Positions 41,175 through 64,000 of a DNA stretch of 64,000 bases are shown here, piece after piece (the first letter of the stretch is position 1; each line of letters begins with the position of its first letter). This stretch comes from an uncultured Chloroflexia bacterium (GTDB taxonomy: Bacteria > Chloroflexota > Anaerolineae > CG2-30-64-16), in contig CAVZDU010000001.1 of assembly GCA_963774265.1 (NCBI GenBank), positions 864,001 to 928,000 on the forward strand. The letters run 5' to 3'. The notes below the pieces were generated by a model, which worked only from the letters and a program-made list of their open reading frames with translations, made no database searches and was not told where the DNA came from. The position numbers were made by a program, and so were the translations under genes.

Positions 41175-41487
41175 AGTGCGCTGGGTGACCTTCGAGCACC
41201 CCGACAAGCGGCGCCCCGCAGTGATCCTGACCCGTGACTCGGCTGTTGGGTATCTGTCCACTGTTACAGTTGCATCCATCACGACCACCATTCGCCAAAC
41301 GCCATCTGCGGTGCGCCTGGGGCCGGAGGATGGGTTGCCAGAGGATTGCAGCGTGAATCTGCACAACATACAGACCGTGACGCAGACCACCGTCGGCGCT
41401 TTGATCGCGGTGTTGACCGAAAGCAGGATAGCGCAGGTCGAGTCCGCGCTGCTCTTTGCTTTAGGTATGGACCGCCATGCGCGCTGA
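41161..41487 (+). CDS. mazF: PemK/MazF-family endoribonuclease toxin
   Basis: MKRGEV.W...PDKRRPAVILTR, VA.ITT. Confidence 0.88.
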   Translation: MKRGEVRWVTFEHPDKRRPAVILTRDSAVGYLSTVTVASITTTIRQTPSAVRLGPEDGLPEDCSVNLHNIQTVTQTTVGALIAVLTESRIAQVESALLFALGMDRHAR

Positions 41488-43426: not shown

Positions 43427-43601
43427 TGGCGGCCTCCATGCGGGGTGATTAGCCCAGTATAGCACCTTAAGAGCACGCCAGGACTCATCTCCTTATATGA
43501 GACATGACCCGGCCATCTGAATGGGATCGCCGGACTGGGCGCCGGCAGGCACGACGAAGAGGCTGACCATGACCAGGACAGCTAAGTGAGCAGAGGGTCG
43601 A

Positions 43602-43830
43602 TCAGAGGGATTCGTAGCCGTTATCTGAGTGTCGTTGGTGAATCGAGAGGAGCGCACCGTGGGGACATGCCAGGACGCATGCCTTGCAGCCCAGGCAGCG
43701 GGATGAATCCACTGCGGGCAGGTCGCCGCGCTCGAACTGCATGATGGCGCGCGGTTTGCACACACGCCACCGCGGAACACGATGAGCAAGATTGGCAGAG
43801 TGCCGGTTCGACGTAGAGAGTAGGGCGCAC
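43602..43830 (-). CDS. Small 4Fe-4S dicluster ferredoxin; +1 frameshift near 43765
   Basis: Joined frames give CQSCSSC....VCKPRAI ... CLGCKACVLACPHGAL. Confidence 0.7.
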
Positions 43831-43927
43831 GAATCAACTCCGTGGGGCGGATTATAGCTTCTGCGGGGGATCGCGTGCAAACGCGTGCCAGCAGGATACT
43901 CGAACCTCAGGCCCTGTTGGCACACGT

Positions 43928-44140
43928 TCACTTGAGCAGCGGTATCTCCACCGGATCTTCCTTGGGCTGGCAAATCCCGCAGTAGAGCGCATTGCCCACC
44001 ACCAGCGCCTTCTGAACCCCCTCGTCGTTGCGGTAGAGCGCCTCGATATGCGGCAGGCTGCGAGCATGTTCGCGGCACACTCCCCGACCGCAAAACCGGC
44101 AGGCGCCCTGGGCTGGTCGATCGCAGTGCCAGCAGTTCAT
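43928..44140 (-). CDS. Small Cys-rich putative zinc-binding protein
   Basis: CWHC..P..G.CRFCGRGVC.EH ... CGIC; AGGAGG RBS. Confidence 0.75.
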   Translation of the reverse strand: MNCWHCDRPAQGACRFCGRGVCREHARSLPHIEALYRNDEGVQKALVVGNALYCGICQPKEDPVEIPLLK

Positions 44141-44168
44141 GATTCCTCCTGATTTCGGACGCGCAGAG

Positions 44169-47100
44169 CTAGGACCCTAAGTCCAGTATCCGGCGGCTGG
44201 ACTCGCGCTCCAGGCCCTGCGCCACGGCAAATTGTTCCGCCACGAGCCGGTCAAAGTCGACTTTGTCCAACGCCAGAGTGCTGATGTGGGTGAGTGCACG
44301 AGACGGACGCGGTGCGCGGCACCGACAGCAGCAGCGCGATTTCTCCTAAATATTCCCCGGGCCCGCGTTGGGCCACTGTGATCGTCTCACCTGCGCGCTC
44401 GGCCAACACCTCCACCCGTCCGGATTGGATGACGTAGAACGTTTCGCCAACCTCACCCTGGCGCATCAGGTACGCCCCAGCCAGGTAACCCTCTTCGCGC
44501 ATCTGGGCGGCGATATGCTGGATTTGCGAGCCGTCCATCTCTGCGAAGAGCGGGATGCGCCGCAGTAGCTCGGCGCGCGTCACCGACCGGTCCAGTTTGT
44601 CGCGCATGGCGAACCGGTCCTTCACCATGCGTTCGAAATCCCCGCGGCTGAGGCAGAGGAGGGTCGTGGGCACGGTGGCGACACAACTTGCTGTACGTGG
44701 CACGTCGCGCAGCAGGGCGGTTTCGCCGAAATGGCCGCCGCGCCCTAACTGATTGACGACCGCACTGATTCCTCGCTCGTCGCGCTGGCGCACCTCCACG
44801 TGCCCCTGGTGAACGATATAGAAGCGGTCCCCGGCCTCGCCCTGGCGGATGATCGCCTCGCCCGCGGCGTATCGCGTGGGGATGAGGCGCGTGGCTAATG
44901 CCGCGAGTTCGTCTTGATTCATAGTGGCGAGGAGCGGCATGCCGCGCAGGAGGAGAGTGACATCCCGATTGGTCGCGGCGAAGCCCGAGCTGAGCGCTGA
45001 GGCCCGCGGCATGAGCCGGAAGAGATACTGCGTGCCGATCTCCCGCACTTCCCACGGCAGGCCGTCGAACGCGCAGCGCAGCGCGGCGAGGGTAAAGGGC
45101 TCCCCCATCTCGGCCGCGGCCAGATCTAGCAGTGTGCTAAGCGCCGCGGCGTACGCTTCGCCCCGACGGATGAGCGGAAGATCGGGGGGCAGCGCGTCCT
45201 GCAACTGCCCCGCCCCCAGGCTCACCCGCCAGCCCGCTGCCAGGGCATAGCCGTTGAACTGCCCTGCAATCGCAGCCGCGCTGCGACGGCCCGCGATCTC
45301 GATCAGGTGGGCATGTATTCCGCCGGCCGTCGCCGCAAATGCTTGTTGCAGCCGGCGCGCGTCGCCGCTAAGCGCAAGATCGCCCTCCCGACGCGCCAGG
45401 CGGTTTTCGGCCGAGACGGCGTCGGCGGCGACCGCGCGGGTGTATGCCAGGTGGTGCAAGTAAAGCCCCGACGCCAGGAGCAGGTAGGGGAGAGCCGGTG
45501 GCAGGTGCGTGAGCGCAAAAATCGCCAGTCCCGCAAGCGCGGTCGTCACGGCGGTCCAGGCCGGCGCAGCGCGCGTCCTCCAGAACGCGGCGAGCGTGGG
45601 GATCAGCAGCGCCGCGGCCAGCCACGGAAGCTCCACCGCGTTGAACGCCAGGTATGCCGCGGCGTCGCCTCCCTTCCAGCCGGCCTGCACGAGTACGACG
45701 AATAGGCAGTAGCCCACCCCGGCGCCGAGCCCTACGGCCGCCTTTTCGGCCGCGGTCGCTTCCCGCAGGTTGGCGCCGGCAAACAGCAGCGCAGCCCCTA
45801 ACAATAGCCCGGCGCTGCTCAATAGTCCGAAAGCTGTGTGAGGGTTGCGCCATTCGCCGGCGGCGGAAGTGAGGCCAGTGAGCTCGAACAACGCGAGTGC
45901 GAGCGCGGCCGCGGCCCAAACGGTGTAGGCGGCTGCGAAGCGTGAGCCCGCATAGCCGCGGGCGCTTCGCCAGCCGAACCAGGTCGCCGCGATCAGCGCG
46001 GCAACCCCGACCAACTGCGCGACGAGCGGGTAGTCCAGCAACTCCGGCAAGGCCGCCAGAAGGGTGCTCGCGAGGAGGAGCAGTGCGAACACACGCCAGA
46101 GACTGCGGAACAGGCCGCGACGCTGGGCCGCGGCCAACCAGCCTCGGACCAGCCGGTATGGGATCGCGCCAAGGACTGCCACAAATAAGGCGCTGATCAC
46201 GACCCCGAGCAGCCCCAGCGCCCAGCGCCCGGGTCCGGCCCCGCCTTCCCATAGGCTGCGCACGCCTTGTACTAAGCGCGTCTGCCAGAAAACCAGGCCA
46301 GCGTAGACGGCGTAGACCGTCCAGGCTGCTGCCAGCAGGCCAAACACCACGAAAATCTGCTCTTCGGCCGTCAACCTGGCCCGCTGCTGTGGCTGCGCCA
46401 TGCGGGGCAGGCGCATCTCACGTACTTTTGCCGGCAGGCCGATACGCAAGAACTCCATGGATTTGCGTCGCAACTGGGAGATTCCCAGCCAATCCATGAG
46501 CAGGTAGTAACCGTCCAGTTCCAGTAGGGGGTTGAGGTTAATAAAGACCAGGATGTAGCAAGTAAAGGCGAACTTGAAGAGCAGGGGGTTGGGCGGCAGC
46601 ACCGGCCAGGCGACCATAACCAACGTGACCAGTCCGGCCAGGATCAACCCGGAGTATGGGCCAGCCCAGGTGACTGCCAGGCGCGCGCGCTTTCCCTCAA
46701 GCCACATATCGGTTGTGTCCACGAAGAACGCGGGCATACCGAAGTAGATCATCACGCCGGCCCGCCGGACCTCACGGCGGTAGTGCTTGACCGTCAGGGC
46801 ATGTGCCAACTCGTGCAGGAAAACCGCGACGAACTGGGCGGCAATGAGCATGACAAGGCCAAGTCCATATGAACCGGCTTCGCTCACCAGGCTGTATCTA
46901 CCTGATATGAACAGCTTGCCGTATAAGACCAGGCCTACCAGGCTGAGCACCACATAGAGGATCTGTGCCGGCTTGGTGAATAGCAGCCAGCCCGCGGCTT
47001 TATAGAGACGATCCAGCGCGCCGTCCAGTCCGCTGATCGCCAGGGGGGTTTGCAGGAAGGCGTGCCAGAGGCGCCCCAGGCGCACACGCAAGCGGCGTCC

Positions 47101-47508
47101 CTCCAGGCTCTCATGCACTTGCCGGTAGACGCCCACAGGTTTGTCAGTCAGGAATCCGTTGATCCTGAGCCCGGTCACTAGCCCGGCGACGCGGCCGAAC
47201 GCGAAGGAGCCGTATTGGCCAAAATAGGCCACCACCAGATCCTTCACCGTCCGCGTGCCGTCCATTAGCTCCCACAGGAAGGCATCCCGGTCGCTGAGTT
47301 GATAATAGGTTTTCGTCGTAGGGTTTTTGATAACAGTGTAAGGACCGTCCCGACCGTCCAGCCGGCTCGCGATCACGCCAGGCACAGCCTGTGGTCGGAC
47401 CATCGCCACGTCGAACCGCTCCTGCAACCATGCCCACAACCCCGTACGACCCTCATCGGGCCGTCCGGCGTCGAGCCGCAGGTTTTCCCAGAGCGATGTG
47501 GCAGCCAT
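44169..47508 (-). CDS. RRE/PqqD domain - M50 intramembrane Zn peptidase - multi-TM - two cNMP-binding domains; +1 frameshift near 44301
   Basis: YYQLS...FLWELMDGTRTVKDL (RRE-like); HELAH and NLNPLLELDGY (M50); two G..GE.ALL..PRTAS cNMP motifs; corrected C-terminus RALTHISTLALDKVDFDRL...LGS*. Confidence 0.85.
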
Positions 47509-47642
47509 GTGTCTGTTTCGCCCCTCACTCCCCTTGCGGGGATGTTCCACGCGCGGCAAGACCGACAGAGCCAAGGAGTGGAAACATTCACCTGTTTCTA
47601 CCCCTTGGACCTCAGTCGGTCAATGTATCTTTTTCGTCAGTA

Positions 47643-48596
47643 CTACACCAGCGTGCCCGGCAGCTTGCTCAGAACGATCGCGAGTTGCTGTGCGGAGAGC
47701 TGGGCTAATTGTTGTGCCGAGAGACTGGCGGCTTGTTCAGCCGTCATGGCCGACAATTGCTGGGCCGACATATGGCTGAGCTGCTCGGCGGATAGGGCGA
47801 CCATCTGCTGCGCCGACATGTGACTGAGTTGCTCGGCGGAGAGGCTGGCCATCTGCTGGGCCGACATGTGGCTCAGTTGCTCGGCGGAGAGGGCGGCCAT
47901 CTGCTGGGCCGACATGTGGCTCAGTTGCTCGGCGGAGAGGCTGGCCATCTGCTGGGCCGACATGTGGCTCAGTTGCTCGGCGGAGAGGCTGGCCATCTGC
48001 TGGGCCGACATATGGCTCAGTTGCTCGGCGGAGAGGCTGGCCATCTGCTGGGCCGACATGTGGCTCAGTTGCTCGGCAGAGAGGCTGGCCATCTGCTGGG
48101 CCGACATGTGGTTCAATTGCTCGGCGGAGAGGGCGGCCATCTGCTGGGCCGACATGTGGCTCAGTTGCTCGGCGGAGAGGGCGGCCATCTGCTGCGCCGA
48201 CATGTGGCTCAGTTGCTCGGCAGAGAGGCTGGCCATCTGCTGCGCCGACATGTGACTGAGCTGCTCGGCGGAGAGGCTGGCCATCTGCTGCGCCGATATG
48301 TGGCTGAGCTGCTCGGCCGAGAGGCTAGCCGCTTGCTGGGCTGCCTGGCTGGCAGCGGTGGCTTGGCCGCTCAAAGCTGAGAGGAGGCCGAGCGCGGTGG
48401 CCTTGGAGACGCGCTCGTCCAGGACGCCAGCGAAAGAGTCCATAGTCTCGAAATCGATAGCCTTCAATGCGGCGCTCTCGGACGCAGTCAGATCATAACC
48501 TGTCAACGCCACATCGGGCCGTGCAAACAGCGCATTGCGGAACGCGCTATCGGTCACGGCCCTGCCGATGATCGCCTCCATCGCTTGCTTGGACAT
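47643..48596 (-). CDS. NHLP-clan (Os1348/Franean1_4349-like) leader protein with long 16-aa tandem repeat region, 317 aa
   Basis: MSKQAMEAIIGRAVTDSAFRNALF..PD.AL.GYDLT..E.AAL...LDERVSK leader; AAGGAG RBS; 12 x (S/A)LSAEQLSHMSAQQMA. Confidence 0.8.
   Translation of the reverse strand: MSKQAMEAIIGRAVTDSAFRNALFARPDVALTGYDLTASESAALKAIDFETMDSFAGVLDERVSKATALGLLSALSGQATAASQAAQQAASLSAEQLSHISAQQMASLSAEQLSHMSAQQMASLSAEQLSHMSAQQMAALSAEQLSHMSAQQMAALSAEQLNHMSAQQMASLSAEQLSHMSAQQMASLSAEQLSHMSAQQMASLSAEQLSHMSAQQMASLSAEQLSHMSAQQMAALSAEQLSHMSAQQMASLSAEQLSHMSAQQMVALSAEQLSHMSAQQLSAMTAEQAASLSAQQLAQLSAQQLAIVLSKLPGTLV
47751..48326. repeat. Coding tandem repeat, 12 x 48 bp
   Basis: Near-identical 48-bp units with mostly synonymous variation and no spacers. 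Confidence 0.95.
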
Positions 48597-48695
48597 CTTG
48601 GTGCTCCTTTTTGGGCTCGAGGTGTTTATTTGTTCGACTGGCCCCATGTTACGGCAAAAGCTGCGCCCGCGCTGCGATGCGCGCCACACCGGCGG

Positions 48696-48711
48696 AGTGA
48701 TCTACATCACA
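48696..48711. promoter_or_regulatory. CRP-type binding site upstream of the leader-repeat gene
   Basis: Minus strand TGTGA-TGTAGA-TCACT, 9/10 match to TGTGA-N6-TCACA; candidate -10 TAACAT at 48646-48651. Confidence 0.75.
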
Positions 48712-48717
48712 CCCCGG

Positions 48718-49407
48718 TCAATAGTTGATCTTCCGCCACAGCCCGACGCGATCCAGGATCGTGATCTTCTGGCCGACCAACTCGATCAGACCTTGATCCC
48801 GGAAAGTCGAGAGAACCTTGTTGACCGTCTCTCGGGAACTGGCGACCCAACTCGCAAGCTCCGCCTGTGTCAGGCCCAGATCCAGCTCCAGGCCGCTCCC
48901 CCGCGGGGACTGCGCGCCGAAACGGTCAGCCAGCTCCAGGAGTCGCATGGCGACCCGGCCATTGGCGTCAAGAAAGGCCAGGCTCTCAGCGTATGCCGTC
49001 GTGTACCGCAATCGTGCGGCGAGAATCTCGAGGAGCCGCACCGCCAGGCGAGGATGATCCTCCAACTGTTGAAAGAAATCCTCCCGTCGCAGAGCTAAAG
49101 TCTGGGTAGGTTCCACCGCCACTGCACTGGCAGAGCGGGGGCGACCGTCGAGAAAACCCAGTTCGCCGATGACTTCGCCCGGGCCGTAAACGTTCAAGGA
49201 AATCTCCTGGCCGGATTCGCTGAGAATGAAGATGCGCACCCGGCCCGATTCGATGATGTAGAGGGTTTGGCCCGGGCTATCCTTGTGGAAGATGAAAACT
49301 CCCTTGCCGAATACGCGCGTCACCAGGCAAGTCGCAACTTCGGCAAGCTCTGAATCGGACAGGCCGTTAAGGAGCGAGGACTTGCGTAACTTGTCTATTC
49401 CTGGCAT
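48718..49407 (-). CDS. Crp/Fnr-family transcriptional regulator (cNMP-binding)
   Basis: GELGFLDG.PRSASA pocket; HTH LTQAELASWVASSRETVNK. Confidence 0.93.
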   Translation of the reverse strand: MPGIDKLRKSSLLNGLSDSELAEVATCLVTRVFGKGVFIFHKDSPGQTLYIIESGRVRIFILSESGQEISLNVYGPGEVIGELGFLDGRPRSASAVAVEPTQTLALRREDFFQQLEDHPRLAVRLLEILAARLRYTTAYAESLAFLDANGRVAMRLLELADRFGAQSPRGSGLELDLGLTQAELASWVASSRETVNKVLSTFRDQGLIELVGQKITILDRVGLWRKINY

Positions 49408-49442
49408 CGAGACCTCATTGCTTTCGGCGTCCTATCTTGCTT

Positions 49443-52400
49443 TCAGCCAATCATATTCAACAACCTTATCAGCGCCTCGATGTTCTTGCGTTTCCCCTCA
49501 TCACGGAGGCGCCGAGCAGCAGTCGTGAAGTAACGGTGCTCGCGGGAGAACTTCAGTTGACGACGATACCATTCAGTCTCGCTCACTGGTGCGCCAAGGG
49601 CCGCCAGTTCGGCGCGCAGGGCCTGGCTCCGGTCGAGAGCATCATCCCGACCGAGGTTATCCAGGTCAGCGTCGGCGAGGATCTCCTCGAGGGGCGTGCG
49701 TGGAGACTGCGGCAGGCGGGTGGCCAGGATCATGCCTTGCACCGCCGCCACCTGCTCCGACGTGAAGCCGAACCGGGGCAAGACCTGTGCCGCGATCTCC
49801 GCGCCGGCGCGTTCGTGTTCGTGGCTGGGAACCGTCCCCCTGGGACGTTGAACCACAAACCCGATATCGTGGTAGACGGCGCCGATCTCCAGCAGCTGCG
49901 CATCTTCGGGGCTGACCCCCACCAGGGTTGCCAGACACTGGGTCGCGGGCAGCACGTCGTCTCGTGTGTGGGCCAGGCTGTGATAGGTCAGCTCGGGGGC
50001 TAACTCGCGTTCCAGGCGGTTCAGTGCGTAACGGATCGCACCCTCAAAATCTGGCCCGGCGTGCGCAGTGCCGTCTCCGTCCCACAGGGATGGTTCCCAA
50101 TAGTAAGCGGAGCTCAGGACGGCCGACTGCGCATCCAACTCCAGGCTTTCGCAGAGGAGTTGTTCGGCCTCCCCGAAAGCGCCGTGCGCCTGGGCTTGCT
50201 TGCCGGCCGTTTCCAGGTATTCGATGGCCTTCGCCGGCTCACCGCCATGACGCCAATGATGCGCCAGGATGACGTACCAGGGTGAGAGGTCGGATCGATA
50301 GTTTTCTTCGTACTTTTCGGCGGCCCGCCGGTGAAGACGTCGCCGCTGCATGAACAGCATCGAGGTGTACGCAGCATGATGAACGGCCCCGTCTGCGAAG
50401 GCATACGACCTATCCGCCACTCCCCCCGCGCCGCAAATAAGCAAGCCCTGCTCTGCCAGGCCATCCAGGAGATCATTCAGATGCGCCTTTTCGGAGTCGA
50501 CCGGGAAGATTTCGCGGAGCATCGTGCTCACGAAGGTCGTGCCCAGGACGCTGGCCACCTTCAGCACTAATTGCTCGGACGGCGAGAGGTGATCCAGCCG
50601 ATTGCGGATCGCTGTCGAATATGGGGCCATTCCCTTCGCCTCACCAGCGGAAACACCGGTCGGACGGTAGACAACCACCGGCTGCATGAAACCCTTGACT
50701 CGAATCGGCGGCAATGCCGTGAAGGCCACCTGCCCCTGGGCTGCCCGGCAAATCTCCTCATCACACAAGATATCGCCTTCCGGCGCTGCGATCATGAGAC
50801 GCGCTGCCAGGTTGACCCGATCGCCCTGGATGCCGTAGGTGCGACGTCCCCTGCCGCCATAGGTGCCCACCAACGCCTGGCCCACGGCGACCCCGATCCG
50901 GATCGATCCCATGAACGCTAGCTCCGGCGGCGGTGAGAGCAGCTCAAGCGCAGCACAGACTGCGCGGGTCTCGTCATCGCTGTGCGCGATGGGCGCACCG
51001 AACGCAAGGCAAATATAACTCCCCTTGTCTCCCATGGTCAGGTGATCGAAGATTGCCTCGTAACCCTCGGCCACCCGTTGCACCCACCGGACATAAGCGT
51101 CGAGTTTTGTCCCCGCCTCTTCGTCCGCGTCGTAGTCGATACCTTTGAAGTTGAGGAACAATGCCGACACGGGGCGCAGCTCGGAGAGGAACTGCTTGTG
51201 GTCACTGCGGGCCCGCTCGTACACGGCAGGCAGCACCCATGGCCGGTACTCCGCATCGGAGAGGCCTTCTGTTGGCAATTCGGGCCACGGCGTGGGCGAC
51301 ACTCCTTCGACTGGGCCGCAGACGACGGCGATGGGCCTGTCCCGGTCATCTGTGCGCCATTCGCGTATGGTGAGTTGAAGGGTGCTCCGCTCGACTATGT
51401 CACCCCCCACGACAACTTCACCTCGATTGGCTGCGTGTTCGGCTGCGGCGAGCCGGTCGAGGGTCCGCCCAGCGATGGCCTCGATCACCTGGATCCCAGG
51501 ATCGCCGACCAGGAGGCGGCGCACCGGACCAGCCACGACCGCAACCTTGGCGGCCAACTCGAAGGTGGCGCCTTGGGGTGTGGTGACGGTGTTGCAGAGG
51601 GCCATCGCCTCTTGCATGGCCAGGCCGCACGCGACCGCAACCAGCTCTGCTGGCACACCTTGGGCACGTGGGAGTGATGTCGCGTCGTCAAACCAACACG
51701 TGATCGCGTCGCCGGCAAAGCCGATGACGCTGCCTCCGTAGCGGTGCACTTCGTCGATCAGCGCGGTGTAGATCTGGCTGATCGTGCGAGTCAGCTCTTC
51801 GGCGCCGCGTTCGAGCCCGAGTTCCTGCGCCAACGCCCCCGTCAGGGGGGTGAAGCCGGAGATGTCTGCGAACAGGGCCGCCCCGGTCGCCCGGTCGGGC
51901 AGGGTTTCGCCGCGCGCGAGCGCATGCTGGCGGTCCACCGGTATGTAAACGGTCAGCGGTTCGCCTTGCGCCCGTTTCATCTCCTCCATGTCGAGGCGTA
52001 ATTGCTCCAATTGCTGTCTCAGTCGTTGCTCGCGCAGGTAGACCTCGCGGGCCATACGCTGGAAGACGCGGGCCAGCCGGCCGAGGGCATCCTCGCGGGC
52101 GCCGACCGCGTCCAACGTGGCAGGATCGAAGCGGCCGGACTCCACCGCCTGGGCTGCGTCTGCCACGCGGCCTGCCTGCTCCAGGTACTCCAGCTCCAGG
52201 TCGCGCAGCCGCTTCTGTGCCAGGGACGCTTGGAGACGTGCCTGGAGCAGGGCGGGCTTGAAGGGCTTTGGCAGGTAGTCGGTTGCTCCTAGCTGGATGC
52301 AGCGGACCACGCTGTCGATTTCGTCGAGGGCCGAGATCATGATAACCGGAATGTGACGCAGGTGCGGGAGCGCCTTGACGTGGGCCAGTACCTGGTAGCC

Positions 52401-52634
52401 GTCCATCTCGGGCATCAGAATGTCCAGGAGGATCACATCGAATCCCACGGGGGTGGGTGCAAGACTCGCCCTTACCGGAGAGGGCTTTTGCTCCAACAGC
52501 GCGACGGCCTGGCGCCCATCCTCAGCGAGCGTTACGGTATAGCCCTGGTCTGTCAGGAGGCGCGCGAGTTGCTTACGGTTGACGATGTTGTCGTCGACAA
52601 CCAGGACGCGCCCGGTTCCCTGCGAGTCGGGCAT
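49443..52634 (-). CDS. Response regulator - tandem class III adenylate cyclase - helical/TPR - HD phosphohydrolase
   Basis: REC (VVDD, LLDILMP, DYLPKP); FADISGFT, FAGDA, GDKG, GDRVNLAARL; YH...H, YHDIG, DADL. Confidence 0.85.
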   Translation of the reverse strand: MPDSQGTGRVLVVDDNIVNRKQLARLLTDQGYTVTLAEDGRQAVALLEQKPSPVRASLAPTPVGFDVILLDILMPEMDGYQVLAHVKALPHLRHIPVIMISALDEIDSVVRCIQLGATDYLPKPFKPALLQARLQASLAQKRLRDLELEYLEQAGRVADAAQAVESGRFDPATLDAVGAREDALGRLARVFQRMAREVYLREQRLRQQLEQLRLDMEEMKRAQGEPLTVYIPVDRQHALARGETLPDRATGAALFADISGFTPLTGALAQELGLERGAEELTRTISQIYTALIDEVHRYGGSVIGFAGDAITCWFDDATSLPRAQGVPAELVAVACGLAMQEAMALCNTVTTPQGATFELAAKVAVVAGPVRRLLVGDPGIQVIEAIAGRTLDRLAAAEHAANRGEVVVGGDIVERSTLQLTIREWRTDDRDRPIAVVCGPVEGVSPTPWPELPTEGLSDAEYRPWVLPAVYERARSDHKQFLSELRPVSALFLNFKGIDYDADEEAGTKLDAYVRWVQRVAEGYEAIFDHLTMGDKGSYICLAFGAPIAHSDDETRAVCAALELLSPPPELAFMGSIRIGVAVGQALVGTYGGRGRRTYGIQGDRVNLAARLMIAAPEGDILCDEEICRAAQGQVAFTALPPIRVKGFMQPVVVYRPTGVSAGEAKGMAPYSTAIRNRLDHLSPSEQLVLKVASVLGTTFVSTMLREIFPVDSEKAHLNDLLDGLAEQGLLICGAGGVADRSYAFADGAVHHAAYTSMLFMQRRRLHRRAAEKYEENYRSDLSPWYVILAHHWRHGGEPAKAIEYLETAGKQAQAHGAFGEAEQLLCESLELDAQSAVLSSAYYWEPSLWDGDGTAHAGPDFEGAIRYALNRLERELAPELTYHSLAHTRDDVLPATQCLATLVGVSPEDAQLLEIGAVYHDIGFVVQRPRGTVPSHEHERAGAEIAAQVLPRFGFTSEQVAAVQGMILATRLPQSPRTPLEEILADADLDNLGRDDALDRSQALRAELAALGAPVSETEWYRRQLKFSREHRYFTTAARRLRDEGKRKNIEALIRLLNMIG

Positions 52635-52635
52635 A

Positions 52636-52995
52636 TCAACTCCTCTCCCGAATGGCCCCCAACGCGGCGTGTGCCTGCTGGTATCCTGCGGCGATGCGGG
52701 CCAGCAGGTCGGTTCCACCCTCGAGAGATCCCGCCTTGGCCAGTATCTCCAGCTCCCGGCATTGTCCCGATAGGGCCAGCGCGCCGAAGTTGGCGCAGTT
52801 GGATTTGAGGCTGTGCGCCGCGCGGCGCACAGCCTCGGCGTCACCCGCGGCCAGTCCTGCCCGCGCGACCCCCAACTGCCGGGGCGAATCCTCGAAGAAT
52901 GTGTCGAGCATTTCTCCGAAAAACTCCATGTCCCCACCGAAGCTTTCCAGAAGTCCGTCCAGCACGGTGCGGTCAATGACGTTGTCTTGTTGCAT
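52636..52995 (-). CDS. Hpt phosphotransfer protein
   Basis: AAHSLKS...FGA..LS..C.ELE. Confidence 0.9.
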   Translation of the reverse strand: MQQDNVIDRTVLDGLLESFGGDMEFFGEMLDTFFEDSPRQLGVARAGLAAGDAEAVRRAAHSLKSNCANFGALALSGQCRELEILAKAGSLEGGTDLLARIAAGYQQAHAALGAIRERS

Positions 52996-53025
52996 GATGC
53001 TTTCCCCTATCCTACACGCCACATT

Positions 53026-56000: not shown

Positions 56001-58128
56001 CAAACACCGCCTCAACGCCGGTGCCCACCTCCAGCACGCCGTCGAACAGGCCGCTCAGGGTCTCAGGCAGGTTTTCGCTGAGCTTCCCAAATCGGCTGAC
56101 CCGGTATAACGCAGTGGCCTGGGCAATCTCCCGGTGCAACTCCTCTTCGGCCTGCTTGCGCTCGGTGATGTCGCGGATGATTTCGATCGCGCCGACGGCA
56201 TTGCCCTCAGCGTCGCGCAGGACGGATGCGGTGCCCATCAGATAGTGCGCACTTCCCCGCAAACGCGGCGCGTAGGTTTCGCCGACCAGGACGGAACCAT
56301 GCCGCTGGATCTGGGCGTGTTCTTTGTCCAGATCCTCCTGCGATTTGAACACCAGGTCGATCAGGATCGGCTGTCGCTTGCCGTAGAAGGGGAGGGCGTA
56401 TTCGTAGTCACCCTTGCCCAGTATCTCCTCCGCCGGGATCCCCGTCATCTCTTCAATGGCCCGGTTCCAGGCGATGACGCGGCCTTCCCCGTCAATCACG
56501 ACCGTTGCATCGGGCAGGAAGTTGATGATGTCGGTCAACCGGCGCTGCGTCTCCTGGGCGGTCGAGTAGAGTCGCGCATTGTCCAGGATGACGGAAGCGA
56601 GCTGGGCAAAGCGGCTCAGGAGTTCTGCCTCCTCCGCGCCGAAGCTCCGGCTTGATTCCGCGCCATACGCCAGGCCGATGACGCCCACAACATGCTCGCC
56701 GGAGGTGAAAGGCACGCCCATGATGCCGCGCATCACACCGCGATCGAACGTTGCTAAGCGGCCGGACCAGGCGTCGTAGTCGTCGATGACCACAGGGTGA
56801 CCTGTCTGCCAAACCGTCCCCACCAGGCCATCCCCCGGCTTCCTATATTCGCCGACCAACCGAGCGAGCGCACCGATGCCGACCTTGCACACCATCTCCG
56901 CTTTCCCTGGATCCAACAGATAGAGGAACCCATGCGGCGCATGCAGCAGTTGGCTAGCTCGCGTGATCAGCGTCTCCAGTAGCTCGTTCACGTCCAGCCG
57001 GCTGATCAGCCCCACGGTCGTCTCGTATAAAGCGGCCAGGTACTGATTTTGCCGCACCATCTCTTCCAGGAGTGCGTCCCGTTCGCGGTTGGCCTCTTTC
57101 GCGACGACTTGGGCCTGCTTCTGTTCGGTCATATCGCGCAACAGCAGCAGGTGTCCGACGATCAGCCCGCGATAATCCTTGAGTGGGGAGAGATCCGGAG
57201 CGTAGTACCGGGCGCCGGAACCCCCCAGGCTGATTTCGGTTGGCTCTGCCACCCCCCCGGCAAGCTGTTCGATGAGATCGGGGCATGCCGGCAGGAGATC
57301 CTGCAATGTTTTGCCGCGGGCCCGCGCGGCTGAAGTAGACAACATGCTTGCCGCCGCGGGGTTCAGGTCGGCGATTCGCCACCGGGCATCCAAGATCACC
57401 ATCCCTTCGCGCATCTGCGCGATCACCGTTTTGCGGGCAGCGTGCAACTGGTCGAAGATGCGGAAGCCGAACAGTGCGATGGCATATGATCCGAAGAGGA
57501 GTGCCAATTCGATAATGAGGGGGTCCAGCGCATTTGTAAGTCTCACGTTGACGACGTCCAGCGCGTACACGACCCGGCCCACAATCATCCCGAACACCAT
57601 CAGCGCCACCGGCAGGCGATGCTGCGGCGAGCGGACGAACAGCCAGAGGAAAGCGGCGATATTGACCAGGATGAGGCTCATTCCATAGCCGGTCCCGATT
57701 CGGTTGCCAATGCCGCGTAGCGGTTGGACAGCCCCATCGACCGCGAACCCGAGCCACATGAGGTGATGGAGATCGTTGGTGATGATCAGCAACAGGCCCA
57801 AGAGGGGAGGAATAGACAGCAGGATCAGGTTGCGGCGGGTCAGCCAGCGTCCGGGGTAGGCATACTCCAGAGCAAAACAAGCCCCGGCGGTGACCAAGGG
57901 CAACTGCCACACCCCTTGGAACTTGAACCAGGCGATTCTCGTCGAAACATCGCCTGCCGCCGATTCAGCGACTGCGCCTGCCAGCCACAGAAACGCGAAC
58001 AGGCAGGCGATCGCGACCGGCTTCGCGCCGGGTACGCTGCGGCGCCGCCAAACGTACAAGCCCAAGGTGCCCAGGAATACCAGAACAGCCAGTCTCGGCC
58101 ATGTGTTGGGCATAGCAAAAAGATCCAT
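53026..58128 (-). CDS. Hybrid histidine kinase: 7TM-PAS-GAF-PAS-GAF (with inserted permuted sugar-binding domain)-HisKA-HATPase-REC-REC
   Basis: [37 protein letters not shown], two receiver domains. Confidence 0.92.
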
Positions 58129-58164
58129 CTTGTTGAGCCTTCCACTGGATCGGTTCTTGTTTGG

Positions 58165-61100
58165 TCAACCTGATTGATCAAGACTGGAGGCCATGCTGCG
58201 GCTCAGCGCCGCCACCAGCTCATCCACACGGATCGGTTTGCTCAAGTAGTCGTCCATGCCGGCCGCCAGGCACAGCTCGCGGTCGCCTTGCATCGCGTTG
58301 GCCGTCATGGCGATGATGCGGGGCCGGGCACCCGCCGACCAATGGGCGCAGATCTGTCGGGTCGCCTCCAGGCCATCCATCTCGGGCATCTGCACGTCCA
58401 TCAGCACCACGTCGTATGGTTGGCGCTCTATCGCCTGGATGGCTTCCAGCCCGTTCGCGGCTACGTCCGCGCGGTAGCCCATCTGGGACAAGAGCCGCAG
58501 AGCCAGCTTTTGGTTCACCGCGTTGTCTTCGGCGAGCAGGATGCGCAGTGGATGGCGCGCCGCCATCTCAGGATCGAGCGCGGCCCTGGCCGGAGTGGTC
58601 CGCGCAGGCTGGCGCGACTGAGCAGGCTGTCGCTCAAAGACACCGAGCAGGGCATCAAATAGCGCCGACGGCCTGATTGGCTTGGTCAGGCTGGCTGCGA
58701 ATAGATCCGGGTCGACCCCAGCCTCGCGGCCGCCCAATGACGAGAGGAGGATCAAGGACAGACGAGGACTGGATTTAAGATTTAAGATTGAAGATTGCTC
58801 AGCCGTCGTAGGTGCCCGATCTTCAAGCTTCAATCTTTCATCTTCAATTCGCCGTATGGCCTCGGCCAGTTCCGCCCCCGTCATTTCAGGCATGCGCTGA
58901 TCCAGGATGGCCAGGTCGAAGGGCTCGCCGCCGTCCAGCCAGTCCAGTGCCTCCTTTGGCGAGGCAGTGGCGCGCGAGAGCATCCCCCAACCCTGCGTCT
59001 GAAGGGTCAGAATGCGCCGGTTGGTGGCGTTGTCGTCCACGATCAGCACGCGGCGGCCAGCCAATTGTGGTTGCTCGCCGGTCAGGTGGGGACGGGTCTT
59101 CAACTCAGTGGCTGCCTGCGCAACGATCGTGAAATGGAAGGCGCAACCGGGCCCTCCCTTGGCCTCTTCGTCCAGGAGGAGTGCAGGCGCTGCCGGCGAC
59201 TCGACCCACATCGTGCCACCCATCATCTCGGCCAGCCGCTTGCTGACGGCCAGGCCGAGGCCGGTGCCGCCGTATTTGCGGGTGGTGGACGCGTCCACCT
59301 GGCTGAAGGCCTGGAACAGGCGGTCGAGGCGGTCAGGTGGAACGCCGATGCCGGTGTCGCGGACGGCGAAGTGCAGTGACACGGAGAGGGGGAGACGCAG
59401 CGAAGGGGAGAAGGTTTCCGTTTCCCCCAAGTGCCGGTCACTGTCAGCCGCGTCCGTGTCTCTCGTCACGGTCACCACCACTTCGCCTGTTTCGGTGAAC
59501 TTGACCGCGTTGCTGAGCAGGTTGACCAGGATCTGGCGCAGGCGCGTGACGTCGCCGACGATGGCTGCGGTGTATCGGGGGCCGATCTGGTAGGCCAGGT
59601 CCAGCCCTTTCTCGGCGGCCTTGATGCGCAGCAGGTCCAGCGCCGACTCCACGCACTCGCGCAGGTCGAAGGGCTGTTGCTCCAGCTCCAACTTGCCGGC
59701 CTCGATCTTGGAGAAGTCGAGGATGTCGTTGATGATCGTCAGCAGGGCATCCCCGCTGTTGCGGATCGTCTCGGCGAAGTCGCGCTGCTCGGCGGTGAGG
59801 GGGGTGTCGAGCAGCAGACCGCTCATGCCGATGATGGCGTTCATCGGGGTGCGGATTTCGTGGCTCATCATGGCCAGGAAGGCGCTTTTGGCCTGGGTGG
59901 CGGCCTCTGCGGTCTGACGCGCTTGCTGCAGATCGCTGATGTCATGGTAAATCACCAGGGTGCTGACTTGCTTGCCCTCGATGATCACCGGCACGGCATG
60001 CAGCTCGACATCCACAAAGCTGCCATCCCGACGGTTTCGACGCGCGATGGCGTGGACGACGGCGCCGGCTTCCGCCCTCTGGGAATAGGCGGCGGCCTCT
60101 GCCCGGACGGTATCGGTCGTCACAAGATCATCGACATTATGGCCGATCGCTTCTTCCTGGAGGTACCCAAACAGGCTCTCGGCCGCTGGGTTCCAAGAGA
60201 GGACGTTGGCATTCTGGTCAACCACGACGACGGCCGCGGGGGTGTTCAGAACCAGGGATTCGAAGTACCGCTTCTCTCGCTGCACCTCACCGTACAATCG
60301 AGCGTTTTCCAGTGCGATGGCTGCCTGGTTGGCGATGGCTTCCAGAAGTGCCTGATCCGACGCATCGTAGGCATTCGGGTCCGTGTAGTGCTGCAGGATG
60401 ATCACACCCAGCACACGCTCGCCCGTCTCGTCTAAGTGCCGGGCACTTTCGGAGTCCGACCCCGCAGCTCCAATCACCATGGGCACGCCCAGCCATGACG
60501 CAGCCGGCGGCCCGTAGACCGCAACGCCTGTCATGGCCGTGAGTTCCTCTGCTGACACATTTTGCACGAAGACCGACTTGCCGTGCTTGACGATATAACC
60601 CGCCATGCAACCATCAAGCGGAAGCCGGGTGCCCGGCTGCACCTCGCCCGGGTTGCGGCTGAGGACATACTCAACCTCTTGGCGGCCAGGGTCATAGAGC
60701 GCGATGATCATGTTTTCGGCATACATCACGCGCGCCGTCTGCTCGGCCATGAGCTCGAACAGACCCTGCAAGTCCAGCCTGGACGACAGGGCCTGGCCGA
60801 TGTCGGACAGCAGTCGATAGCGCGTCTCACTCCGCTGTACAGCTTCCTCCGCAACCTTGCGCTCCGTAATGTCGCGGATGATTTCGATCGCGCCCACGTT
60901 GTTGCCCCTGGCGTCGCGCAGAACGGATGCCGTGCCCAGTAGATAGCGTGCGCCCCCCCGGAGATGGGGCACGTAGGTTTCGCCGATCAGAGTGGCGCCA
61001 TGTCGTTGGACCTGAGTATATTTCTGCTCCAGCTCTTCTTCGGGCGTGAACACCAGGTCGATCAAGATCGGTCGTCGCTCGCCGTAGAAGGGGAGCGCGT

Positions 61101-62802
61101 ATTCGTAGTCACCCTTGCCCAAAATCTCCCCCGCTGGGATCCCCGTCATCTCCTCGATGGTCCGGTTCCAGGCAATGACGCGCCCTTCTGCATTGATCAC
61201 CAGCGTCGCATCGGGCAGGAAGTTGATGATGTCGGTTAGCCGGCGCTGCGATTCGATAATGGCGTCTTCGGCACGTTTGAGTTCGCTCAGGTCATGGTAG
61301 ATCGTAAGAATGTAGGGGCTCTGTCCGGCGGCGATGAGCGGGGTGCTGAAAATTTCCACATCGACCAGGCTGCGGTCCTGCCGGCAGCGACGGGTAATCA
61401 CATGGAACCCTATGCCTGAACGTGCAGCTTGGGTCAAGCTATATGCTTCCTCATAGTACTCCGGCATACTCGGGTCAGAGATCAAAGTGTCGAGCTCCTG
61501 CCCCAAAGCGGCCTGGCAGGTGAAACCAAACAGCGTCTCGGCCGCCGGATTCCAGGAGGCCACGCGGCCATCCTGGTCTGTGGTGACGATCGCAACCGGG
61601 CTTGACTGCACCAGCGTTTCGAAGAGTTGCTTTTGGCCCTGCATCTCTGTGAACATGCGCGCGTTCTTGACCGCGGCGCCGATAATGGATGCGAGTGTCT
61701 GTAGCAAATGGATGTCGGAATCCGCAAAGGCGTCTTCTTTCTCATAATCGTCCAGTACGATCAGGCCGGTGGACTGACCAGCGACGATAATCGGCACCCC
61801 GGCAACGGACTTGCTCATCGTCGTGCCGGGCAGTGGCTTCCAACCCAGTTCTGCCCAGCGGCGTTCTGTGTCCCGATTGGCGACGAAAGGCTGCTGGGTC
61901 TTGAGTACATGGGCCGATAGACTGATCGGCTCATGGGGCTCGATGGTCAGCCGCTGTCCGTGATCGTACTCGCACACGTAGTGGAGGAGGTTGGTCGCCG
62001 GATCATAAAGTCGTATGCCGATATCTGCCGTGCCAAAAATCGTACGCAGCTGGTCGGCAGCCAAGTCGATGAGATCCTGGAACTCGAGTTTGGAGACCAG
62101 CCCTTGCTGGACACTGTTGATGATGGCCAGTTCGGCGGTGCGTTCCTGCACCTTCTGTTCCAAGGTTTCGTTGGTTTTCTCCAGCAAAGCCTGCGCCTGG
62201 GCCAGCTCCGCCCGCGAGCGGCGCTCAGTGTCGATCAGCTGCTCCTGGAAGCGTTGGAACAGCGTGAGCAGCACAATGGCGACGGCCAGAAGCATCAGCG
62301 AGGTGCTGCCCTCGATGACCCAATCAGCCAATCGCTGGGAGTTCTGCACGATTACAAGGTAGGGCAGCAGGAGGCCGCGATCGGCAAGAACGGCGAAGAT
62401 CGCCAGGATAAGAACGCTGAGTGCCGACAGGAGGGCGCCAGCACGCGTGCCCACGAGGATTAGCGCTATGATGGGCAGCACGATCAGGTAGTCGCGGCCA
62501 CTGCCGGCCAGGCCGCCGCGCGCCAGGCTTACGATGGCCGCAGCATATCCCAACAGCAGGAGGCCCGACGCACGTATCCGGCTGTCCAGGCTCCGCCAGA
62601 GCGCCAGCACACCCAGGAGCAGCAGCATGACCGTAAAGAGCGCGACAGCAGGCCATTGGTCTGGCTGCCGCGCAGCGGCAAAGAAGGTCATGCCGAGAAT
62701 GGGGATGCACGCGATCGCGGCGATGGCAAGGAAGCCGGTCAGGATTCTTGTGCGCCACTCTGCCAGCATGGACCGGGTTTCGGCGCCATTATTTGGTTTC
62801 AT
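58165..62802 (-). CDS. Hybrid histidine kinase: multi-TM-GAF-PAS-PAS-GAF-PAS-HisKA-HATPase-REC-REC
   Basis: [16 protein letters not shown] boxes, two receiver domains. Confidence 0.92.
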
Positions 62803-62815
62803 ATCGCTTCCCCGA

Positions 62816-64000
62816 CTACGCGCGCTCTAGCGCTGCGACGAGCTCGTCCACCCGAATCGGCTTGGCGAGGTAATCGTCCATCCCCGCCTCCAGACATAGC
62901 TCCCGGTCCCCGTGCATGGCGTTCGCCGTCATGGCAACGATGCGAGGGCGTTCGCCGCGCGGCCAGCGAGCACAGATCCGTTGGGTAGCCTCCAGTCCGT
63001 CCATCTCGGGCATCTGCACATCCATAAGCACGACATCGTAGGGCTGACGCTCGATTGCCTGGATGGCCTCTATACCGTTGCCAGCCACGTCCGCGCTGTA
63101 GCCCATCTGCGAGAGCAGGCGCAGCGCCAGCTTCTGGTTCACCGCGTTGTCCTCGGCCAGCAATATGCGCAGCGGATGCTCTGCCGCCAGATTGGCGCCC
63201 GCACGCGGTTGCTCGGCCGGCACGCGCACCGGGCGCTGCGGCTGTTGCGTCAGCACGTTCATCAGCGTGTTGAACAGCGCCGACGGCCGGATTGGCTTAG
63301 CCAGGTAAGCTGTGAACAAGGTCGTGTCACCGACCGCCTCCCGCTCGCCTATGGATGATGCCAGAATCAGAGGCAGCGGAGGCCGAGTTGCAGTTTTTCC
63401 ACCTTCAGCCTGGAGGGCCCGGATTGCGGCCGCCAGCTCGACGCCGGTCAAATCCGGCATCGCCATATCAAGGATGGCTACATCGAAGGTATCCCCGCGG
63501 CGGAGCCACGCCAGCGCCTCGCGCGGTGATCCGGTGTTGCGCGGCGTCATTCCCCAGCCGCGCGCTTGCATGACCAGAATGCGCCGATTGGTGGCGTTGT
63601 CATCCACGATCAGCAGGTGCCTGCCAGCCAGGTCCCGCTGCTCGCAGCGAAGGTGCGGACGAGCCGTCGTCTCAGGTGCAGCCTGCGTCTCGATGACGAA
63701 ACGGAACGTCGAGCCCTCACCGGCGCCCGTGCTCTCGGCCCACATCTTCCCACTCATCATCTCGACCAACCGCTTGCTCACAGCCAGCCCCAGGCCTGTG
63801 CCACCGTATTTGCGCGATGTCGAAGTGTCGACCTGGCTGAACGCCTGGAACAACCGATCCAGCCCATCCTGGGGGATTCCGATGCCGGTGTCGCGCACAC
63901 TAACATGCAGACGAATGCGTTCCGGCGGACAGGGTGCGATCTGGATCTCGTCTGCCGTAGCCTGGTCCAGCATCTCGAAGACTAACACCACCTCTCCTTG
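62816..64000 (-). CDS. Hybrid histidine kinase, C-terminal part (HATPase-REC-REC), truncated by window edge
   Basis: [29 protein letters not shown]. Confidence 0.9.
   Translation of the reverse strand, partial: QGEVVLVFEMLDQATADEIQIAPCPPERIRLHVSVRDTGIGIPQDGLDRLFQAFSQVDTSTSRKYGGTGLGLAVSKRLVEMMSGKMWAESTGAGEGSTFRFVIETQAAPETTARPHLRCEQRDLAGRHLLIVDDNATNRRILVMQARGWGMTPRNTGSPREALAWLRRGDTFDVAILDMAMPDLTGVELAAAIRALQAEGGKTATRPPLPLILASSIGEREAVGDTTLFTAYLAKPIRPSALFNTLMNVLTQQPQRPVRVPAEQPRAGANLAAEHPLRILLAEDNAVNQKLALRLLSQMGYSADVAGNGIEAIQAIERQPYDVVLMDVQMPEMDGLEATQRICARWPRGERPRIVAMTANAMHGDRELCLEAGMDDYLAKPIRVDELVAALERA

Follow-up and report, generated by a model that had tools for sequence, protein, structure and literature searches.

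We analysed a 64,000-nt stretch of DNA from an uncultured Chloroflexia bacterium (GenBank assembly GCA_963774265.1, contig CAVZDU010000001.1, positions 864,001 to 928,000), hereafter the window, and found in it a gene cassette that places a leader-type precursor protein beside a putative intramembrane metalloprotease with two cyclic nucleotide monophosphate (cNMP)-binding domains. The domain content of the encoded proteins, the linkage of their genes in relatives and the conservation of CRP boxes were all observed, and we propose that the genes form a leader-dependent proteolytic maturation cassette under cyclic-nucleotide control. We put the probability that the whole chain holds as proposed at about 55%.

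From position 64000 down to 43602, the open reading frames (ORFs) of the minus strand were listed as a single co-oriented, tightly spaced block, in which the gene gaps from the kinases to Crp range from an overlap up to 36 nt by ORF coordinates. A first-pass annotation of this DNA had read here three hybrid kinases, an Hpt protein, a REC-cyclase-HD enzyme, a Crp, a CRP box, a leader protein, a peptidase and a Cys-rich protein, and analysis of ORFs and Pfam matches recovered all of them. The features of the block are as follows.

62816 to 64000, minus strand: hybrid histidine kinase 1, clipped by the window end; HATPase_c and two REC domains.
58165 to 62802, minus strand: hybrid histidine kinase 2, 1545 aa; MASE11, GAF, three PAS, HisKA, HATPase_c and two REC domains.
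53026 to 58128, minus strand: hybrid histidine kinase 3, 1700 aa; 7TM, GAF, PAS, Peripla_BP_4, HisKA, HATPase_c and two REC domains.
52636 to 53022, minus strand: Hpt phosphotransfer protein (Hpt, 61.5 bits); overlaps the stop of hybrid kinase 3 and abuts the cyclase start.
49443 to 52634, minus strand: protein with REC, two cyclase-homology regions and HD (Pfam), 1063 aa from MPDSQG.
48718 to 49407, minus strand: Crp/Fnr-family regulator (Pfam), 229 aa, with GEL..RSA and SRETVNK motifs.
48696 to 48711, minus strand: CRP box 1, TGTGATGTAGATCACT, its start 115 nt upstream of the ATG of the precursor gene.
48673 to 48688, minus strand: CRP-like box 2, TGTGGCGCGCATCGCA, with two mismatches, 23 bp downstream of box 1, a spacing as in relatives.
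47643 to 48596, minus strand: Os1348/Franean1_4349-type (NHLP-clan) leader-domain protein, 317 aa; N-terminal domain of ~65 aa ending in LDERVSK, then a repeat tail.
47758 to 48341, minus strand: tandem array within the precursor gene, 12.2 copies at a period of 48 bp, the unit being SAEQLSHMSAQQMA(S/A)L.
44169 to 47508, minus strand: peptidase with a PqqD-like/RRE region (RiPP recognition element; RiPP, peptide synthesized ribosomally and modified post-translationally), an M50-type intramembrane metalloprotease, a polytopic/helical region and two cNMP domains; ATG at 47508.
44301, minus strand: extra base (coding-strand T) that shifts the peptidase frame, judged from relatives and one 98%-identical contig.
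43928 to 44140, minus strand: 70-aa Cys-rich protein, with an AGGAGG ribosome-binding site upstream.
43602 to 43742, minus strand: 46-aa fragment with one CxxCxxCxxxCP motif, not kept in relatives.

Alignment of the window peptidase with 20 homologues showed that H232, E233 and H236 of the HExxH motif, together with NLNPLLELDG at residues 324 to 333, are invariant in 21/21 sequences, as expected of an M50/site-2 protease. The Pfam profiles Peptidase_M50 (PF02163) and PqqD each matched 11 of these 21 sequences at an E value of 0.01 or better, with 1.3e-4 as the best value for PqqD. The cNMP_binding profile (PF00027) matched the window protein over two stretches (133.6 bits), and in the two cNMP cassettes, FGETALL..PRTAS and LGEIALL..PRTAS, the Arg is invariant in both and the Glu in the second. 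An AlphaFold model of the peptidase (mean predicted local distance difference test score, pLDDT, of 71.4) places strands at residues 46-52, 55-62 and 67-71 and helices at 73-81, 88-99 and 104-116 of the N-terminus (pLDDT 73-85); three strands and then three helices is what we take to be the RRE order. Past this region the model continues with some sixteen long helices, then a helical domain and the cNMP pair. Foldseek with the whole model returned only cNMP tandems and says nothing on the RRE or M50 parts; the C-terminal ~230 residues resembled the regulatory tandems of PKA and PKG (best E value 7e-14, 23 to 30% identity). A sequence search of the PDB with the N-terminal half of the peptidase gave 0 matches.

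Docking of the leader was modelled with residues 1-470 of the peptidase, residues 1-100 of the precursor and Zn. The predicted complex scored 0.44, against 0.01 for the best of three controls, with a contact agreement between runs of at least 51% and a partner pLDDT of at least 55. In calibration, 58 of 80 solved complexes attained the mark for such complexes, as did 2 of 110 mismatched pairs; at scores of 0.60 or less, those attaining it were only 7 of the 80 solved complexes and both passing mismatches. This calibration is only rough for the present case, in which our own alignments and a riding ligand were used, and likeness to the RRE-leader complexes that have already been solved may contribute to the score.

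Evidence that these genes belong together came from relatives. Among 8000 candidates scored, 667 were peptidase homologues at an E value of 1e-5 or better, and PF00027 was found in all but one of the 120 homologues listed, most of which come from Anaerolineae or Chloroflexota metagenomes. In a scan that took one genome per species, 78 peptidase loci were found, of which the 72 with a peptidase ORF of at least 700 aa were placed with the window in a FastTree phylogeny; L024, L025, L032, L044, L072 and L076, being split, cut or short, were excluded. The window's clade comprises 18 of the 73 tree rows with a support of 100. Neighbours were counted in this clade without the window and only at loci with sufficient flank. 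Where at least 3 kb of upstream flank was available, an Os1348-type gene was present at 12/12 loci, a Crp gene at 11/12 and an M16 peptidase gene at 9/12; with at least 6 kb upstream, a cyclase gene was present at 5/9. Downstream, the Cys-rich gene was found at 13/15 loci with at least 400 bp of flank, and a gene for a cNMP-SpoIIE phosphatase at 5/11 with at least 2 kb. Most often the genes run as Crp, leader, M16, peptidase and Cys-rich, and the cassette is compact and co-oriented at every clade locus. The closest context retrieved, from the metagenome scan described below, is that of locus L118 (79% identity), where Crp, a 161-aa leader protein with the same type of repeat and the peptidase follow one another in the window order.

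The precursor head was matched by the family NF038399 (Os1348 family NHLP clan protein) with 70.9 bits against a cut-off of 40, and by PF14407 (Frankia_peptide) with 53.1 bits against 48. A profile built from 30 heads matched the Os1348 crystal structure 6lk7 with an E value of 3.5e-9 and, more weakly, nitrile hydratase alpha chains, SonA and NHLP leaders. The features of a classical NHLP leader were not found: no Gly-Gly follows the head (...LDERVSKA), and the matches in that respect were NF038399 and a sub-threshold match to CCRG-2. The repeat tail was matched by ALTTAQ_rpt (51.2 bits), and Tandem Repeats Finder described the array as 12.2 copies with a period of 48 and 92% matches; the 12 tandem repeats of the NHLP-type leader protein in the first-pass annotation were thus borne out as 12.2 copies of 16 aa. 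An ESM Atlas search with the repeat tail gave no usable match, and the genome holds a single copy of an Os1348-type gene.

Across the family, the head is conserved to ...LD(E/Q/A)R(I/V)(S/T)K and the sequence beyond it is hypervariable, with tails of 3 to about 250 aa. Many are of 3-8 residues, often hydrophobic or aromatic (WGY, MRFWG, SILGIFY, GKIVL, RAWRG), and others have 20-40 residues. Ala-rich quasi-repeats make up the tails of L003, of the second leader protein of L011 and of the window, and homologue P0122, named 'Franean1_4349 family RiPP' at NCBI, carries a Gly/Asp/Ala unit three times. In a soil-type metagenome clade the leader proteins, 206-296 aa in total, consist of the head, a Gly-rich linker and a conserved Asp-rich domain. 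Leader genes commonly occur in 2-4 tandem copies (three in L005, four in L072), and the 16-aa repeat, present in 12.2 copies in the window, has about 3-4 in P0121, whose head is 91% identical, and in L118:2420-2923. Such a pattern would be that of variable cargo behind a recognition handle, processed by proteolysis alone. With no conserved modifying enzyme and with tails from 3 to about 250 aa long, the cassette probably yields a peptide or protein set free by proteolysis and not a classical RiPP.

Fused or extended forms of the leader protein were seen. In the soil-type clade (L147, L149, L157, L161, L167, L170, L181, L187, L189, L195) the gene order is peptidase, Cys-rich gene and Os1348-like head fusion, and the Asp-rich C-terminal domain (YHTRVDVDGDG...DFVGHDYDRDG...) makes the cargo a whole domain, not a peptide. 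L131:3837-4676 and L132 encode fusions of an Os1348-like N-terminus with a protein of 273 aa that contains a GTGTG motif and is SAM-methyltransferase-like by eye. Some leader proteins beside short RRE-M50 peptidases (L142:769-1269, L143, L145, L151) have an N-terminal extension of ~85 aa, with PF14407 at positions 88-150.

The composition of the cassette also bears on a second explanation, that it supplies the precursor, leader peptidases and regulator of a classical RiPP pathway, with the genes for modifying enzymes at other sites in the genome. The NHLP-clan head and the RiPP name given to a homologue by NCBI speak for such a pathway, as do the best matches of the protease, which are RiPP leader peptidases, and the Os1348 cluster of Pseudomonas sp. 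Os17, described with GNAT, HExxH and SagB-type genes (PMC7726476). However, the first-pass annotation had noted the absence of YcaO, radical SAM and lanthionine enzymes from the window, and the same holds among the recurrent neighbours, where none of these and no ATP-grasp or other modifying enzyme recurs. Tails of 200-300 aa with a conserved Asp-rich domain are not peptide cores, and the cassette stays compact and co-oriented at every clade locus. We therefore consider a classical RiPP pathway quite improbable.

Regulation of the precursor gene by Crp is suggested by the spacer between the two genes, which measures 121 nt in the window. The box TGTGATGTAGATCACT is the only site with at most one mismatch in the 64-kb window; shuffled versions of the window are expected to hold 1.41 such matches, and 75 of 100 shuffles held at least one. 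The number of boxes in the window is therefore not above chance, and the case rests on position and on conservation in relatives. Comparison of 16 loci in which a Crp gene is followed by a leader gene, with a box defined as TGTGA-N6-TCACA-like with at most two mismatches, showed that the spacer holds a box in 15/16 and a second box exactly 23 bp downstream in 14/16. The distance from the boxes to the start codon is 86-156 nt in 14 of the 15 box-bearing loci and 485-508 nt in L003. L004 and L024 have two leader genes, and in both loci the second gene has a perfect box with a partner box 23 bp downstream, and the first has a box with one mismatch followed 23 bp downstream by a box with two. In L025 and L044 the cyclase gene, too, has a perfect box upstream of it. 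Sites with at most one mismatch numbered 21 in 242,054 bp from the window's clade versus 10 in 641,769 bp from an unlinked clade described below, and six loci outside the tree held 10 in 90,293 bp. The proposed link from Crp to the precursor thus gained backing from conserved tandem boxes, and the box of the first-pass annotation was present and conserved in relatives, although the second box, 23 bp downstream, had been missed. An Os1348-like gene at L106 (G022:C65:596-775) is likewise preceded by these two CRP boxes, there at positions -118 and -95. It lies in a 98% complete genome of the window's family that gave no peptidase match; the contig begins just upstream, so the context is cut.

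Analysis of the Crp protein gave matches above cut-off to cNMP_binding (86.6 bits) and HTH_Crp_2 (68.2 bits). Its score against the E. coli CRP equivalog NF008732, 95.5 bits with a cut-off of 266, makes it a member of the family and not a CRP orthologue; its GEL...RSA and SRETVNK sequences presumably correspond to the cAMP- and DNA-contacting motifs of E. coli CRP, which they resemble. The cyclase protein matched Response_reg (93.7 bits), Guanylate_cyc (34.0 bits, cut-off 21.9) and HD (31.1 bits), the Guanylate_cyc match spanning profile positions 64-172 only. Read by eye, the two metal-binding Asp residues are retained in the first cyclase region and the Asn/Arg pair in the second, an arrangement that would suit a single pseudo-heterodimeric active site.

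Pfam analysis of representatives and of the window protein distinguished four cyclase architectures beside the clade peptidases: Zn-ribbon-cyclase-AAA_16-TPR-SBP_bac_5, cyclase-AAA_16-TPR, CHASE2-cyclase and, in the window, REC-cyclase-HD. As the architectures differ, the common denominator would be nucleotide synthesis and not one input. The phosphorelay that the first-pass annotation had placed at the input is accordingly present as genes here, but it is confined to this window and not shared by relatives. A free-standing HD protein in L004, L007 and L024 resembles the HD end of the window cyclase (E values 1e-65 to 1e-77). Directly past the Cys-rich gene, several loci (L006:5054-6331, L004, L008, L018) encode a cNMP-binding SpoIIE (PP2C) phosphatase, absent from the window, that would be a third cNMP reader in the neighbourhood.

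The Cys-rich gene lies 28 nt past the restored stop of the peptidase gene. C3, C6, C14, C17, C22, H25, C54 and C57 are invariant in 23/23 sequences of the protein, a pattern that fits two zinc sites, and its gene is present at 13/15 clade loci. No family matched it above cut-off (C5HCH, 23.2 versus 26.3 bits; DUF2180, 16.1 versus 22.2 bits), and Foldseek with its model found nothing at an E value of 0.001 or better, the best PDB fold having an E value of 0.39.

From these data we infer how the leader would be bound, where it would be cut, how and by which nucleotide the protease would be gated, and what would become of the product. Signals sensed by the three kinases would pass through Hpt to the receiver domain of the cyclase, which would make cyclic AMP (cAMP) or cyclic GMP, and the HD domain may degrade the nucleotide. 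Nucleotide-bound Crp would act on both boxes to switch on the precursor gene. The PqqD-like (RRE) N-terminus of the protease would dock the ~65-aa Os1348-type head as a recognition handle, and the PKA-R-like cNMP tandem, when occupied, would permit cleavage near the conserved ...LDER(I/V)SK boundary. The variable C-terminal part would thereby be freed, here as a 12-copy, 16-aa Ala/Gln/Ser-rich repeat protein. In relatives, M16 may trim or clear the head or the product, and the 70-aa two-zinc protein would be a conserved partner of the protease. A broader version, tentative and in our judgement somewhat short of an even chance, is that a second-messenger-gated protease recognises a folded NHLP-clan handle by way of an RRE and releases any cargo behind it, the cargoes seen ranging over 3-residue peptides, Ala-rich repeat proteins and Asp-rich domains, while the same nucleotide, through Crp, switches on the cargo gene. 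If so, cyclase, cargo gene and product would be joined in one coherent feed-forward circuit. The protease would be the first of the site-2 type to be regulated by cNMP, and a RiPP-type leader system would for the first time serve as a general, signal-controlled device for the release of proteins or peptides.

Several observations weigh against cyclic-nucleotide-controlled maturation of a leader-type precursor. The window peptidase scored 18.7 bits for PqqD, under the cut-off of 23.4, and gave no PF02163 match at an E value of 0.01 or better; the complex prediction lends weak support to RRE-leader docking. Thus, for the RRE-M50 peptidase with two cNMP domains of the first-pass annotation, the M50 motifs and the cNMP pair stood, while the PqqD match fell below its cut-off and the frame is broken as assembled. 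No exporter was found among the recurrent neighbours of the cassette. An M16 peptidase, usual in relatives, is absent from the window, and the nearest M16 genes in the genome are a generic tandem pair with 26-27% identity. Linkage also fails in part of the tree. In a 36-locus clade of Ardenticatenaceae/Promineifilaceae type, with peptidases of the same architecture, the leader gene was found at 0/26 loci, Crp at 0/26 and the Cys-rich gene at 0/33; architecture alone therefore does not imply the cassette. The linkage to leader, Crp and cyclase genes that the first-pass annotation had expected held in the window's clade (12/12, 11/12 and 5/9), but not in this one. An 8-locus clade had the Cys-rich gene at 7/8 loci, a divergent cyclase at 3/7 and a leader gene nearby at 2/7.

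An independent metagenome scan gave 80 loci, 16 of which had at least 2 kb on both sides. These 16 had an Os1348-type gene within 3 kb in 14 cases, the Cys-rich gene in 12 and M16 in 2, and neither Crp (0) nor cyclase (0) in any. Since the metagenome loci keep the leader without Crp or cyclase, the pairing of the RRE-M50 peptidase with an Os1348-type protein is broad, and the layer of Crp and cyclase belongs specifically to the window's clade. Peptidases of only ~450-480 aa that have no cNMP domains likewise adjoin leader genes (L025, L044, L142-L146), those of L025 and L044 with Crp and cyclase nearby, so that nucleotide gating appears to be an add-on and the control layers separable modules. 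Os1348-type genes above cut-off were found in 17/41 related genomes and a strong peptidase match (E value of 1e-60 or better) in 4/41, and the leader family must therefore have other partners. A strong peptidase match was present in 1/7 other genomes of the genus and in 0/17 genomes of other genera in the family; the cassette is accessory.

Genome-wide co-occurrence was set aside as evidence: an Os1348-type gene was present in 10/10 peptidase genomes of unlinked clades, but 17/41 related genomes carry such genes anyway. The unlinked clade (L028-L079) has conserved small neighbours of its own (for example L043:9559-9879 and L043:13176-13475), a ~100-aa CxxC protein upstream on the opposite strand and a ~80-aa CCPAC...GCRC protein downstream, with a cytochrome-c-like protein and a ~745-aa protein next; none of them is Os1348-like.

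A further observation of this kind is that the Cys-rich gene is linked to the peptidase more widely than the leader gene is. A closer association of the Cys-rich protein than of the leader with the protease would sit well with regulated intramembrane proteolysis for signalling, in which the Os1348-type protein is a regulator or adaptor that is destroyed or used and the output is a change of cell state; it might alternatively be an inhibitor to be removed, or serve as a handle by which other substrates are recruited. Regulators are the classical targets of site-2 proteases, as with RseP and SpoIVFB. Many tails have just 3-8 residues, no exporter or modifying enzyme is conserved, and a cNMP-SpoIIE phosphatase is encoded at 5/11 loci, all of which would fit such a role. 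The Os1348 prototype is moreover described as folded, dimeric and 85 aa long (PMC7726476). However, hypervariable tails on a conserved head, tandem copies of the leader gene (three in L005, four in L072) and tails made of long repeats or a whole domain fit a cargo better than a regulator, and the leader proteins have by eye no membrane segment, unlike classical site-2 protease substrates. A signalling role of this type is in our view unlikely, though it deserves more weight than the other alternatives considered here.

The frameshift in the peptidase gene is the last of the points that count against release of a cargo by a nucleotide-gated protease. As assembled, the peptidase ORF ends at 44251, inside the second cNMP domain: the extra T at 44301 removes the last ~42 aa and puts the final strand and helix of this domain out of frame. 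The +1 frame continues from 44297 to 44172 as relatives do, the window reading ALTHISTLALDKVDFDRLV... and the 82%-identical homologue P0003 reading ALTHVRTLALDKIDFDRLV..., and without the extra base the peptidase frame runs to 44169 as in relatives. A 242-nt contig of run X2, 98% identical and spanning 44146-44388, lacks the extra base and has five other differences; this support is weak, coming from a single contig with a depth of 3.1, and the contigs of X1, X3 and X4 do not span 44301. No RNA run was among the 11 runs listed. A Lamin-tail-domain (LTD)/PLD-like gene nearby is split into two overlapping ORFs in different frames (41499-42476 and 42344-43465, minus strand). Because this is a second apparent frameshift within 2 kb, we lean towards an assembly error at 44301; the extra base may instead be a strain-specific mutation.

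The truncated cNMP domain could also mean that the cassette is decaying and functionless in this genome, which would be compatible with the proposed function at the level of the family. The loss of M16 (present at 9/12 clade loci), a runaway repeat (12.2 copies against about 3-4 in P0121 and L118) and the patchy occurrence of the peptidase (1/7 genus genomes, 0/17 of other genera) would be in keeping with decay. In contrast, the X2 contig, albeit one contig at a depth of 3.1, has no extra base, the PLD-like gene 2 kb off points to assembly indels, and the other genes of the block are intact and tightly spaced. L118, L011, L025 and L044 are also without M16 and yet keep the rest. Decay of the cassette in this genome is thus improbable in our estimate.

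The leader peptidases of two known systems come closest to the window protein. Its best NCBIfam match was daptide_HExxH, NF041824 (E value 1.1e-41), where 143.2 bits against a cut-off of 300 places it outside the family. The likeness to daptide MpaP/DapP lies in an N-terminal RRE (putative in the window protein) followed by an M50-type membrane protease beside precursor genes, and the daptide leader is described as taken off by an intramembrane peptidase that depends on an RRE (bioRxiv 10.1101/2023.03.08.531785). The window peptidase differs by an extra ~600 aa, made up of the polytopic region and two cNMP domains, and its cassette has no MpaB/C/D/M-type genes (no aminotransferase, alcohol dehydrogenase or methyltransferase). 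Daptide precursors have ELExMEAP leaders plus a C-terminal Thr that is invariant, whereas the window family has NHLP-clan heads without that Thr. The YydH/LiaK family NF058609 matched residues 206-369 (E value 2.8e-12) with 46.8 bits against a cut-off of 225, again below membership; here the likeness is that of an HExxH membrane protease maturing a small peptide, and the window cassette has no radical SAM epimerase or ATP-binding cassette (ABC) exporter. To our knowledge, the YydH/LiaK family has neither RRE nor cNMP domains. Because both curated cut-offs failed and the companion genes are absent, the window peptidase is, as judged from its sequence, not a member of either family, though closest to both.

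Os1348 of Pseudomonas sp. Os17 is the sole studied example of the Os1348/Franean1_4349 family, and its cluster shares with the window the family of the precursor head and the match to structure 6lk7. The partners named for Os17 are GNAT, gluzincin-like HExxH and SagB-type dehydrogenase proteins under Gac/Rsm, with no M50 peptidase, Crp or cyclase among them; the HExxH peptidase gene lies downstream of Os1348, and its deletion is stated to raise the Os1348 level (PMC7726476). ECOD groups the Os1348-type domain as LigA-like, together with NHase alpha, Nif11, ComX and DurB (PMC12353581). PF14407 goes back to a 2009 survey of ATP-grasp-linked peptides (PMC8939145); no ATP-grasp gene was found in the cassette. 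Os1348 of Os17 has no repeat tail, unlike the window precursor.

The NHLP and Nif11 systems have the same leader clan and likewise join a conserved head to a variable cargo. They use a Gly-Gly site and a C39 peptidase-ABC exporter, whereas the window has the boundary ...ISK, an M50 peptidase and no conserved exporter. Weak NCBIfam matches were obtained to TIGR03896 (cNMP-binding bacteriocin-type transport-associated protein) and TIGR03903 (TOMM system kinase/cyclase fusion protein), families that we take to sit beside NHLP-type clusters. SpoIVFB is an intramembrane metalloprotease in which a cytoplasmic nucleotide-binding CBS domain controls cleavage; there the regulatory module is a CBS domain with ATP and the substrate a membrane-tethered sigma-factor precursor, while the window peptidase has cNMP domains. 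Eep-type M50 proteases free short hydrophobic C-terminal pheromone peptides, which recalls the many family tails of 3-8 hydrophobic or aromatic residues, but Eep-type precursors resemble signal peptides, neither a folded leader domain nor an RRE is involved, and the window tail has 250 aa. Searches of the literature, mostly without subscription journals and supplements, found no published description of the cassette, in line with the first-pass annotation, which had known of no system with such an architecture; the RRE-family tables of the daptide paper may list the peptidase group. No published site-2 protease with a cNMP domain was found in these searches. The parts are of known types, namely an RRE-dependent M50-type leader peptidase, an NHLP-clan leader, Crp and class III cyclases; what is new is how they are combined, in that the peptidase has cyclic-nucleotide sensors of its own.

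Bacterial cyclic nucleotides have been known mostly from the control of transcription and from a few enzymes and channels, and a site-2 protease that reads cNMP directly would add regulated proteolysis. The cassette ties a widespread, unstudied leader family (Os1348/Franean1_4349) to a defined peptidase and to a regulator with a recognisable operator, which opens the system to testing in a heterologous host under a single inducer. Members of the peptidase family are frequent in uncultured Chloroflexota from wastewater, soil and sediment, where signalling is almost unknown.

At the downstream end of the block, the ferredoxin that the first-pass annotation had counted as part of the system did not hold up: it is a 46-aa single-motif fragment with a homologue in 1/78 related loci, and it is probably outside the system. 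A 163-aa ORF at 43602-44093 was rejected as a gene, since its frame differs from that of the Cys-rich gene, with which it overlaps, and the Fer4 match is confined to its last 46 aa. Rfam at gathering thresholds gave 0 matches in 40000-64000. Scans of 43400-49500 found 0 promoter-like sites for sigma-70 and four terminator-like sites, which with 3.5 expected are uninformative, and an inverted-repeat search between the precursor and peptidase genes detected a palindrome inside the repeat array only. Beyond the block, on the plus strand, 40926-41171 and 41161-41484 encode a type II toxin-antitoxin pair with an 11-nt overlap; the antitoxin is RHH/HicB-like, by weak matches below cut-offs, and the toxin is PemK/MazF-like with 58.9 bits.

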